The translations under genes were made by a program, and so were the position numbers. A DNA stretch of 64,000 nucleotides from Podospora anserina (taxonomy: Eukaryota): contig CM030334.1 in assembly GCA_017654855.1 (NCBI GenBank), positions 1,302,001-1,366,000 of the forward strand, given 5' to 3'. The notes under the pieces were generated by a model. It was not told where the DNA came from, made no database searches, and saw only the letters and a program-made list of their open reading frames with translations. This document shows, piece by piece, positions 23,789 through 27,820 of the stretch (the stretch's first letter is position 1; the number at the start of each line of letters is the position of its first letter).

Positions 23789-24979
23789 AATGCGGGGTGG
23801 CCACCTCAATTTCTAAACCTCATCCCGCCATTGGCTGACCGTCTCCAGGATGGCCTGTCTCTCCCCGCCCCAGGCCCCCCAGCAGGGTTGAGCAGCGGGG
23901 TCCCTCAGCCTGCGCAGCGAACAAAGTTAGCGTACCGCCCGGGCCGGAATCGAAGGTTCGATAACCCACCCCACAGCGATCAACCCAGCATCTCGACAGA
24001 GCTTCATCCGCATCTCTACGTAACGACAACAGCTTCCATTCGCAAACGGGCTTTAATAGAAAACTCTGTAATATCATTCTGCTCTCTCAGCTTCTATCGT
24101 ATAAAAAGAAACTTCTTCTGAGGGATATAAACAGATATCCTCCTCAAAAGCAGGGTAAAAGCCGATAGAAGCCTTTCGGTATTCCGTAGATCATCACACC
24201 TCCAACAAGAAATCTCGACATTTCCCCACATTCTCGTCTGATTCCCGCGACTCACACATGCCACACAGCGCCCAGTCCTTCCAAGTCTGACATACATATC
24301 ACAAGAATCGTTCCCTTACCCTCTACCGATTCCCCTCGGCCTCCCAATTCCGGTTTCCCACTCCTCACCACTCCATATCATGTCTCGGCCGGATAGAAAC
24401 ATAAATAACGAGTCTCATATCTCTACACCTATATCCTCATCATACACTCCAGAAAAAGGGACTCTGCATAGTGCACACACATGTCTGTCGTGCCTTGACC
24501 GCCCATCCCATCCATCCTATCGCTCGGCAACGTGTACAATGTATAAGTACCTACCGTTCTATTCCTATACCCCCGGCATCGCCCAGCATGTCCAATATCC
24601 CCAATTTCAACCAACCAGATCCCAACAGCCTTCCCCCTTCCTTCCCCTGTCCCATCCCAAAAAAGCCCATCAAACCCTCGATGCGAATTGCCGACCCCCA
24701 TTCTATGGGGCAATGTACCTCCAGTCAGTCTTATCAGCCTGCAACCTCACCGTGCAACCCACTTCGGTTTAACAACACACAATCTTCTTATCATCAGTCC
24801 ATCACTCATCATCAGTCAAACTCCTCTCTCACCAAAAGCCAACCAAGTCAACAACTGTCTCAAATAACCACTACTCCATACCAATTATTCCGTGTGCTAG
24901 ACAGACTACCCCTACAGTAGTACGTACAACACTAACAAAAATACCATCCTCTCTCTCTGCCTCAGCCCCCGCCAAAACC

Positions 24980-27820
24980 TCAAAATCCAGCCACAACACT
25001 CAACCCCCTACCCACCGCCTTCACCACTCCCAAAACCGTAAGAACCCCCCTAACCAGCCACATCCCCACACACAACACCCCAAACAGAAACACCACGGCG
25101 CCCACCCCAACCCAGACATCTTCCCACGTTGACTGCGCCAGCTCAAACCGCCTCCTCAGCTCCGACTCGCCGTCAAAAACCGGCTTGACCATCCCCCAGT
25201 GTGCTTCCACCAGTCCAACCACCAAGTTCAGCACCACAACCATCCAGCTCACCACCTCTCTGCACACATCACCAACCTTCAAAGACCCCTCGAACCGCCT
25301 GACCCCCCCCTTGGTGACCGTTGGCGTGTTCCTGTCCCCCGCTAGTGTAGTCTCCAAAGGGGCTAGATCTTGGCCTTGGTCATCCTGCCGATCCCCCTCC
25401 GGCTCCGCCGCGGCCTTGGCTTTCGCTTCCGCCCCACGGGGAAGTCGCCGATGCCGATCCGACATCATTGTTGTTCCTTTGAACCATGCCGACGCCGACA
25501 CCGGAACCGGTACCGTTCGTGTCCCGTCACAAGACGTCGGCTCCTTTATCGGTAAGGCCTGTGGCTCCGTCTTTGGGTCGTGAACGAGATGTGTGAGCGC
25601 TGCTCTGGCTGCTCCTCGTGCAATGGCGTGATCCAGCTCCTCGTCTGCTTCCTGAGCTGGTGACTGATGGTGTGGACGAGGACGGAGGGTAGAGGTGGAC
25701 TTTGGCCAGGATGGGCTTCGGCTCTGAGTGTTTGCGGTGCCGCCTCCTTCCCCGTGTTTCTCCTTTCTCATCGTCTTGCGCATCTCCCTGGGCTCCGACT
25801 CCTCGGTGCCGTCGCCGTCGCCGTCCGGCTTGGCCGTCTTCTCTTCTGGTGTCTCTGGTCCTGGCTCCTCTGTCGCCAGCGACGTAAAAGCGGTCTCTGG
25901 TTTTGGCTCTTCTGGTGTTGGCAGCAAGTCCCGAGCACTTGGTAGCACCGCCACCTCCAGTTCTGTAATGATTGTCGACGTAGCCACTGTCGTGAGAGTC
26001 TCGCTTTCTCCGTCGCTCGGCGAGTTGTTCGGTTGCGTGCCGAGAGGGAAAGCCGGTACCTCTGAACAGACGCTGCTGGGTGTCCGGGTCAGAGACCCCA
26101 GTGATGCGGGACTCGAGCCTTCCATGATCATCGTCATCGGTGACCGAGGCCCGTCTCTCCACTCGTCGACTGGTTCGACGCAAGGACGGCCGTCCACGAG
26201 CGGGGGAGGCTGACCGCGTTCGGAGCCAGTAGTGGTGGTGATGGGTGTGTAGGCAAATCGGGGTCCCCGGTCGTTGTTCGTGCTGCTCGTTCCCCAGAGC
26301 CCCATGGCGGTTGTGTGAGCCTGGTTGCTCTCGTCGAGGCGGCTCAGATCGTCCAGCAGCCTGGCTGCCCAGAGATCCGCCGGCTTCACGTTTTCCAGCT
26401 CCAGGGGCTTGCTACTGGTGATCCTTGGGGGGATCTTGTTCCCCGGTAGACTGTAACGGAGCCAACGCTGTCTGAAGCTGCCCCGATCTGGTTGCTCCTC
26501 CGACTGGCCGTCGCCGGACTTGTTTGTCTCCGGGTGGCCCGAGGCTACACGACGAGGGACCATTGGTGGAAGGCTGAAGCCAAGCGACTTTGGTCTCGGG
26601 AGCGTGTGAGGCTTCAGCTTTGCCGTCTCTGCATTCCCGTCCACCCTGTTGCGTGTCTGGTGATGGTGCTGGTGCCAGGTCGAGACGGCGGGCAGGTTGG
26701 TGTCTCCTGCTCGAAGGGCCGGACGGCTTGCTTGACTTGCCGTCACCGCCGTCGCCTTCCCTAAAAAAGGACCACGAGGTGAACCGGCGCTGACGGGTGT
26801 CCTATGGACCGTGGTTGCCTCGCTGTCCGAAGTATCGGGGGACATCATACTCCTCTGTGACTGCGGTATAGGGCTCAAGTCTGGCTCGGCCACGCAAGCC
26901 CAGGCTTCTCCCTCTTTCCGCCAGACTACATTTCCGCCATGCTGGTTCAGCACTGTTCTGGCCGCCTCCTTTCTCCGCTCCGCCTTTTGGTGCTCCTTTC
27001 TGATCTGAGCCTCAGTTTTGGCAGCAACATATGCCTCGCGCGCATCCTGTGCTGTGTGGGCGAGTGCTGCGAGATGGGAGTCTGTGGGAGAGGACACCGT
27101 TGCGTCTTCGGAGCTCGTGGTTGGAGTGATGACATCCATGACGCCAGTGTGAGGGTTGATGCTAGTGACCCCAAGGAAGTCGCCGCTCTGCTTCAGAGTC
27201 CGTCGTTGCTGGCGAAGCTCTTGCTTTGCGAGGTAGATCTCCCTTGTATCGCCTGTAGACATCGTAGGCTGAGGTGTCGGGATATTGCTTTTCTTTGCCG
27301 TGGCGTTGCCGCGAGGTGCCCAGTCGCGCCGGTCTACCTCAACAGGATGAGGTTTGTCCTGCTTTAGGGCAGAGGTGTTGATCGTCAACCTCGGCAGCGA
27401 TGAAGCAGGTTGCTTGCCCAAAGCGGCTCGCGTGCTCTGCGTCCGACGAGGAATCGGTATGGGCATGTTCCAGCGACTGGCCGGGATGATATCGGAGTCA
27501 CGGGGACCTGTGACGCCGCTCGGGGCACTGCTTGCGGCCGGGACAGGTATACTGCTGCCTTTTTGTCCGTCTGCCGAGGACGAAGAATTTCTTTTGTGTC
27601 GAATAGTTCCACCTCTCTCAGGGCGTTTACTGGGACGAAGCTTGTTGAAGAAGCTTGACATGGACGTGGTGATGTTTCTCCTGCTCCCAGATGGGGGGGA
27701 CCCGTTCGAGCGTCGAGGAGGCAGAGGCTTGACATCTTGACGATTATTCCGGTCGTCCAGTATTCGAAATGGGGAGGGCGACGGTGCCTGGGGCCGTCCG
27801 TGTCGCGAGGGGGCAGACAT
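24980..27820 (-). CDS. Hypothetical 946-aa largely disordered protein with C-terminal hydrophobic (TM-like) segments; candidate -1 frameshift/dual-coding gene
   Basis: Uninterrupted ORF. Ordered-looking block RQQRRTLKQSGDFLGVTSINPHTGVMDVITPTTSS, coiled-coil-like stretch, C-terminal VWVGVGAVVFLFGVLCVGMWLVRGVLTVLGVV. Slippery heptamer at 26768-26762. Confidence 0.8.
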   Translation of the reverse strand: MSAPSRHGRPQAPSPSPFRILDDRNNRQDVKPLPPRRSNGSPPSGSRRNITTSMSSFFNKLRPSKRPERGGTIRHKRNSSSSADGQKGSSIPVPAASSAPSGVTGPRDSDIIPASRWNMPIPIPRRTQSTRAALGKQPASSLPRLTINTSALKQDKPHPVEVDRRDWAPRGNATAKKSNIPTPQPTMSTGDTREIYLAKQELRQQRRTLKQSGDFLGVTSINPHTGVMDVITPTTSSEDATVSSPTDSHLAALAHTAQDAREAYVAAKTEAQIRKEHQKAERRKEAARTVLNQHGGNVVWRKEGEAWACVAEPDLSPIPQSQRSMMSPDTSDSEATTVHRTPVSAGSPRGPFLGKATAVTASQASRPALRAGDTNLPAVSTWHQHHHQTRNRVDGNAETAKLKPHTLPRPKSLGFSLPPMVPRRVASGHPETNKSGDGQSEEQPDRGSFRQRWLRYSLPGNKIPPRITSSKPLELENVKPADLWAARLLDDLSRLDESNQAHTTAMGLWGTSSTNNDRGPRFAYTPITTTTGSERGQPPPLVDGRPCVEPVDEWRDGPRSPMTMIMEGSSPASLGSLTRTPSSVCSEVPAFPLGTQPNNSPSDGESETLTTVATSTIITELEVAVLPSARDLLPTPEEPKPETAFTSLATEEPGPETPEEKTAKPDGDGDGTEESEPREMRKTMRKEKHGEGGGTANTQSRSPSWPKSTSTLRPRPHHQSPAQEADEELDHAIARGAARAALTHLVHDPKTEPQALPIKEPTSCDGTRTVPVPVSASAWFKGTTMMSDRHRRLPRGAEAKAKAAAEPEGDRQDDQGQDLAPLETTLAGDRNTPTVTKGGVRRFEGSLKVGDVCREVVSWMVVVLNLVVGLVEAHWGMVKPVFDGESELRRRFELAQSTWEDVWVGVGAVVFLFGVLCVGMWLVRGVLTVLGVVKAVGRGLSVVAGF

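Follow-up and report, generated by a model that had tools for sequence, protein, structure and literature searches.

A gene family of Podospora anserina and related fungi with two long overlapping coding frames, a probable -1 frameshift and a candidate edited UAG

A stretch of 64,000 nucleotides of the Podospora anserina genome (GCA_017654855.1, contig CM030334.1, positions 1,302,001 to 1,366,000; here called the window) carries on its minus strand the gene Pa_3_3660 (PODANS_3_3660), which was found to belong to a real two-frame gene family, apparently undescribed and probably frameshifted. Both frame 0 and the -1 frame are coding-constrained across the family, and -1 ribosomal frameshifting at a slippery heptamer is, with good confidence from the sequences compared, the best account of how the -1 frame is entered. 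In Pa_3_3660 the -1 frame holds a histidine-rich motif (ICLHTHHHHYW, here the His motif) behind an in-frame UAG. The broader reading proposed here, which is held tentatively, is that of an undescribed fungal family in which the frameshift is joined by separately placed editable UAGs in Podospora and in the Fusarium oxysporum/fujikuroi group. On the same reading, the form with the His motif would need two recoding events and would be made only in fruiting bodies, and the tail of a Diaporthales-like lineage would be gated by a UAG alone; this stands somewhat short of probable.

The family set was obtained by a search with the N-terminal domain, which gave 37 metagenome loci, of which 10 were too short and 6 were duplicates or near-duplicates, so that 21 distinct loci were left. 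The taxa of these loci were assigned by best matches, to Sordariomycetes and Leotiomycetes, and the names used below for groups of loci are to be taken in this sense. In addition, 161 protein homologues were compared. RNA data were available from four of 24 listed runs in the form of assembled contigs, of unknown stage and with rare forms dropped; transcripts of neighbouring genes are spliced in these runs.

Direct reading of the minus strand bore out the His motif as it had been described in the initial annotation (Table 1). The frame-0 peptide reported opposite it, FAYTPITTTTG, is also present, at 26257-26225, one base away from 26258-26226, where it had been placed. The TAG pointed out there in the context CAC CAG TAG CAA (26414-26412) is indeed the sole -1 stop between the heptamer (26768-26762) and the TGA at 25529-25527; the RNA contig is identical to the genome at this codon, which is therefore not an assembly error. 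The -1 frame has no Met over 413 codons. It contains 1 stop in 285 codons versus 13.6 expected, and the minimum in 200 simulations was 7. When the frame-0 peptide was kept fixed and codon usage was taken from four genes of the window, HTHHHHYW arose by chance in the -1 frame at 2e-4 (100,000 simulations; a post hoc figure for one locus). The motif has a single match in the genome of P. anserina itself, i.e. it is unique there.

Across the family, TTTTTTAG at the heptamer is present in the window and in 19 of the 21 distinct loci, the loci without it being L012 and L017. All 15 loci with both an in-phase TTTTTTAG and H-x-HHHH-Y-W have the motif in the -1 frame behind the site with no stop between, which is the pairing that the initial annotation had proposed to look for in other fungi. 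Stops were counted over a fixed interval per locus, and in 14 of these 15 loci there were 0 over 232-285 codons, versus 8.6-13.6 expected. With one exception, these loci have a -1 frame that is open over about 290-560 codons. The exception is the fifteenth locus, L029 (1305-1436); its minimal -1 frame, 44 codons long, contains the His motif and RRHRRSF alone and may mark the functional core. In L020, an intron of 59 nt lies within the dual-coding stretch, and both frames are open once it is removed. Over 18 motif sequences the His codons alternate between CAC and CAT, by which frame 0 changes between Thr and Ile; the constraint therefore acts on His. Further -1 motifs in common were found by alignment, namely FPxxxAxExLAE, RYY(I/V), THIHIYVP and, often, RRHRRSF. 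As for the compact Cys/His/aromatic motif seen at the outset, its His and Tyr-Trp part is conserved and its Cys is not kept in the Leotiomycete-like loci. In four other species of the Triangularia clade, frame-0 substitutions beyond the site of the TAG fall preferentially on codon position 2 (115:68 downstream of it vs 81:98 in single-coding parts, p=0.001), a sign of -1 constraint.

Among the 161 protein homologues, the His motif is part of the called protein in 5 and its strict Thr-rich shadow is found in 54; a search with a profile of the -1 product returned only 4 proteins. The public models P0146, P0152, P0177, P0192, P0194, P0199 and P0207 hop between the frames and past stops, presumably via predicted introns, and are mosaic proteins.

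Some relatives carry the tail in frame. In P0176 and in the Cryphonectria protein P0042 a single frame covers both the N-terminal domain and the His motif, and the hydrophobic C-terminus of the frame-0 product is missing; the shifted product is therefore directly encoded in some fungi. Locus L012 is arranged in the same way, with one TAG (L012:1038-1040) ahead of the motif, and shares 87% identity with P0176 over the anchor region; its Thr-rich frame is broken and its His frame kept. Five proteins (P0044, P0107, P0117, P0122 and P0130) stop 26-29 residues past SYSDL, at a Gly matching the L012-type stop, and P0176 and P0136 continue beyond this position. L012 and the Diaporthales-like lineage have no shift site and no membrane tail, and their stop is common to several proteins.

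In the window and five intronless loci, the heptamer itself stands in the same phase as the N-terminal domain, and frame 0 is open upstream of it elsewhere. An in-phase heptamer is absent from the 10 other long open reading frames (ORFs) of the window among the 11 compared. It uses TTA, a codon found 4 times among the 268 Leu codons of four control genes. Downstream of it a stem-loop is predicted as a candidate stimulator (Table 1), with similar stems in five Sordariales-like loci (z-scores of -0.55 to -4.23) and none in Leotiomycete-like loci. Its spacing in the window is 2 nt versus the 5-9 nt expected for stimulators of -1 frameshifting.

The second step of the proposed recoding would be adenosine-to-inosine (A-to-I) editing of the UAG. 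An edit at 26413 would turn the -1 UAG into Trp and Ser471 of frame 0 into Gly. Gly in frame 0, corresponding to NGG in the -1 frame, is found at this position in seven Sordariales relatives (P0006-9, P0013, P0015 and P0018); the frame-0 residue is Ser in the Triangularia clade and P0010, and Ala or Val in two others. The base at +3 of the UAG context is A, which is the preferred editing base according to the accessible parts of PMC11156358. The bases at -1 and +1 are fixed by the UAG itself; U at -1, which had been named in favour of editing, does hold and, being true of every UAG, is no evidence. An in-frame UAG with conserved coding sequence downstream, as used to recognise premature-stop-correction (PSC) genes, is present at the window locus. 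Given the rest of the reading, editing at 26413 is slightly favoured, and the combination of frameshift and editing in Podospora is conceivable, at a little below an even chance. The view first taken of this locus is supported in part: the His motif is conserved, a frameshift is the best account of how its frame is entered, and the editing of its UAG is plausible and was not seen.

Several observations weigh against the combined reading. Neither frameshifting nor editing was seen directly. No T>C change was found at 26413 in these runs, nor any edit-like change in 16 kb including neighbouring genes, and since there are no edits anywhere in them, the runs do not test editing. Nowhere in the literature found was editing reported for P. 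anserina itself, as far as the accessible texts go, and the available portion of a preprint on a Podospora sexual time course mentions editing enzymes and not edited sites. The UAG position is not a conserved Trp, being Arg in L024, and none of the 15 other loci with site and motif has the window UAG or any stop in the interval. The candidate A lies in a predicted internal loop and not in a hairpin loop. Within the P. anserina complex, no -1 constraint was detected past the TAG (9:11 vs 18:14, p=0.57, on small numbers), and in the four Triangularia species mentioned above the codon at the TAG position may be CAG. Among Sordariomycete-like loci, 6 of 11 have no internal stop. As to the frameshift, no stimulator is conserved, with z below -2 in only 2 of 19 downstream folds, and L017 has no TTTTTTA and yet retains the full set of -1 motifs and both long frames.

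A lineage-specific truncation, which the initial annotation had named as the alternative, is rather unlikely. It would leave the frameshift as real in the family and have the Podospora UAG end the -1 product, with the motif as a recently silenced relic kept by the overlapping frame. The lack of an edit in the four uninformative RNA runs, of a constraint signal within the anserina complex and of a stop in the interval at the 15 other loci all suit it, and CAG to TAG is a single transition, the dating of which would call for sister-species DNA. Against it stand the four -1 motifs, all of which are intact past the UAG, as well as two features of the family at large. The first is that the internal stops seen in DNA are TAG in 7 of 7 cases (window, L002, L024, L026 twice, L017 and L012), when TAG makes up a share of 0.29-0.53 of one-step nonsense changes; the chance of all being TAG is near 0.005 by our own arithmetic. 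The TAG of L002 falls at a conserved Trp. Such stops occur in 5 of 11 Sordariomycete-like loci and in 0 of 5 long Leotiomycete-like loci, and editing was not found in Botrytis according to PMC11156358, in the parts available. Edited stops are described as having repeated origins, often from non-Trp codons (PMC10776026, accessible sections).

The second feature is an independent -1 TAG ahead of the same motif in Fusarium. In five clusters of the F. oxysporum and fujikuroi complexes the models stop in the -1 frame, nine codons short of CIHKHHHHYW, and the combination of the two frames would force this stop to be TAG; taken at the level of the gene models, it is an independent parallel to the UAG of the window. 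In the Fusarium search (P0201-P0229), moreover, 16 of 45 matches end at one frame-0 position near 600 amino acids (aa). For F. graminearum, combining the two frames again leaves TAG as the one codon that would fit this shared stop. Both derivations assume that the paired gene models stem from matching DNA. The frame-0 stop sits upstream of a conserved membrane region and is a candidate editing-corrected stop, silent (Val) in the -1 frame.

A frameshift followed by plain translational read-through of the UAG, with no editing, is improbable. CAA UAG CAA is a known leaky-stop context, and CAG UAG CAA in the window resembles it; L012 has UAG CAG, and its relatives have Ser or Tyr at the L012 stop position. 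The six-base motif is however matched only in part, the other TAGs of the family have differing 3' contexts, and the UAGs were seen only in Sordariomycete-like loci, matching where editing is reported.

Of similarly low probability is entry into the -1 frame at the RNA level, either with TTTTTTAG as a 3' splice site or by polymerase-added U in the T6 run. The site does have pyrimidines followed by a final YAG, there is a GTATGA 90 nt upstream of it, and public models often fuse the frames by predicted introns. A branch motif CTRAY, however, is found at 0 of 20 sites versus 4 of 5 real introns of the window, and the sole cryptic intron (90 nt) would retain frame 0. In 8 homologues the residues are FLW, where no AG is possible after the Leu codon if, as taken here, the sites are homologous. 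The four RNA runs show neither a splice joint nor an indel in the gene, with the limit that contigs drop rare forms, and a T6 run is short for polymerase slippage.

An origin of the His motif from Thr codons, as a by-product in a non-coding -1 frame, is very improbable and, for the family, effectively refuted by the sequences compared: Thr runs can yield His runs in the -1 frame and the -1 protein has no match in Pfam, PDB sequences or the Atlas, but the simulated chance is 2e-4, the -1 frame is open in 14 of 14 long loci, natural in-frame versions of the product exist, L012 drops the Thr-rich frame and keeps the His frame, and the motif, for which the initial annotation had considered a mere origin from ACC codons without conservation, is conserved in the -1 frame across many fungi.

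According to the mechanism proposed, a single unspliced mRNA would give rise to two proteins with an N-terminus of 352 aa in common. Most ribosomes would stay in frame 0 and make a mainly low-complexity protein with a hydrophobic C-terminal anchor, and a fraction would slip by -1 at U UUU UUA G and make an anchor-less form with four short conserved motifs, including CxHTHHHHYW. In Podospora the UAG would limit the -1 form to about 470 aa. Bypass of this stop, for which A-to-I editing of UAG to UGG in the sexual stage is the likeliest means, would extend the form to about 765 aa. The two products may be membrane and soluble forms, and a switch between anchored and unanchored forms would be the simplest model, at the level of a guess.

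AlphaFold2 gave a mean predicted local distance difference test score of 52.3 and a predicted template modelling score of 0.21 for the -1 tail, with mostly disordered chain, one helix pair and an unstructured His motif region. The Rfam search returned one match, judged to be chance. An automatic label, 'NTP binding protein', was assigned at high score with low recognition and is a lead only, and no function was assigned. As a guess, the His motif might serve fruiting-body development as a short motif for interaction or metal binding.

Among known systems, PaYIP3 is close in kind; its -1 shift takes place at U UUU UCC, towards the end of ORF1, together with a pseudoknot that is conserved (PMC3777964, accessible parts). 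Judged by these parts, the two share a cellular fungal gene as setting, a U-rich site, a structure predicted 2 nt downstream and deep conservation. Pa_3_3660 differs in being of another family, with a canonical heptamer in mid-gene, both frames open over 290-560 codons in the family and no conserved structure found. With the PSC genes of Fusarium graminearum (PUK1, AMD1; PMC10776026 and PMC11156358, as far as accessible) it shares a UAG followed by conserved coding sequence, and recurrent origins of such UAGs among Sordariomycete lineages, frequently from codons other than Trp; there, the stop belongs to the main frame and editing has been measured, whereas here the stop is in the shifted frame and editing is a candidate. 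Pa_3_3660 is a proven member of neither group, since shifting and editing are both putative here.

Cellular -1 frameshift genes are rare. The HIV-1 gag-pol shift site is U UUU UUA, and Pa_3_3660 has the same heptamer, likewise followed by G; unlike HIV-1, Pa_3_3660 is cellular, with no retroelement domain found by Pfam, a long dual-coding overlap and no conserved spacer and stimulator in its family. Two long frames on one mRNA are also known from XLas/ALEX of GNAS, where ALEX has its own start codon, whereas the -1 frame of Pa_3_3660 is without Met. In hepatitis delta, A-to-I editing opens a UAG to UGG, with no frameshift.

In the accessible part of a review (PMC5009743), YIP3 is named as the -1 frameshift gene of these fungi. 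If true, the shift proposed here would be the second cellular one in them after YIP3, and at a canonical site, as far as these sources reach. The literature search gave nothing on the gene, the motif or the arrangement, with subscription journals and the Espagne 2008 list of 14 frameshift or read-through genes outside its coverage; as Pa_3_3660 is annotated as uninterrupted, it is less likely to be in that list. With its open frame 0 the gene passes for an ordinary one, which has kept it hidden. The two-frame overlap of 290-560 codons has been kept over two fungal classes, and many public models of the family are suggested to be wrong. If editing is confirmed, frameshifting and A-to-I editing would act in series, and editing surveys that annotate the main frame would, it is suggested, list corrections of such stops under missense or silent changes. 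A dependence of Podospora development on translational inaccuracy is an old idea, cited in the accessible part of PMC3777964, and Pa_3_3660 is a testable target for it.

As regards the host gene, Pa_3_3660 has no intron and is publicly annotated as an uninterrupted hypothetical protein; Pfam has no family for the protein. A single RNA contig covers 24357-28634 unspliced, the whole gene included. The hydrophobic C-terminal region of the frame-0 product is a candidate membrane anchor as judged from its sequence, and a hydrophobic C-terminal 19-mer is found in 53 of 69 long homologues.

Table 1. Features of Pa_3_3660 in window coordinates
Feature	Positions	Strand	Remarks
Frame-0 ORF, Pa_3_3660 / PODANS_3_3660	24980..27820	-	946 aa; transcribed unspliced
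Family N-terminal motif KQELRQQRRTLKQSGDFLGVTSINPHTGVMD	27134..27226	-	common to both products; homologue comparison
Second family motif W..W..VAEPDLSPIPQS	26858..26923	-	common to both products; homologue comparison
Slippery heptamer T TTT TTA, then G	26762..26768	-	putative -1 frameshift site; conserved TTTTTTAG
Predicted stem-loop, candidate stimulator	26712..26759	-	2 nt past heptamer; -27.1 kcal/mol, z -1.31
-1 frame, part one	26415..26768	-	118 codons, FFREG...KDHQ
In-frame UAG of -1 frame	26412..26414	-	candidate editing A = 26413
-1 frame, part two	25527..26411	-	294 codons + TGA
His motif ICLHTHHHHYW, -1 frame	26226..26258	-	sequence reading
-1 frame motif FRGTGFPSRHATEQLAE	26016..26066	-	conserved; sole part with confident predicted helix
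-1 frame motif RFYV	25881..25892	-	conserved (family RYYI/V)
-1 frame motif KVHLYP	25686..25703	-	conserved (family THIHIYVP)
Frame-0 C-terminal hydrophobic region	25022..25255	-	two segments flanking PVFDGES; not in -1 product

Within the gene, the window differs from three RNA runs at 26677 and 26180, with the same two changes in all three; 26677 corresponds to Trp382, which is Arg in the reference protein, and both differences are probably strain variants. At 24830, three runs have a loose end, which maps to another contig and is likely a short-repeat artefact. Farther along, between 30916 and 31025, 108 bases are skipped in all four RNA runs, with three extra letters between the two sides, and the Zn2Cys6 gene may have a micro-exon of 3 nt here, at its 5' end.

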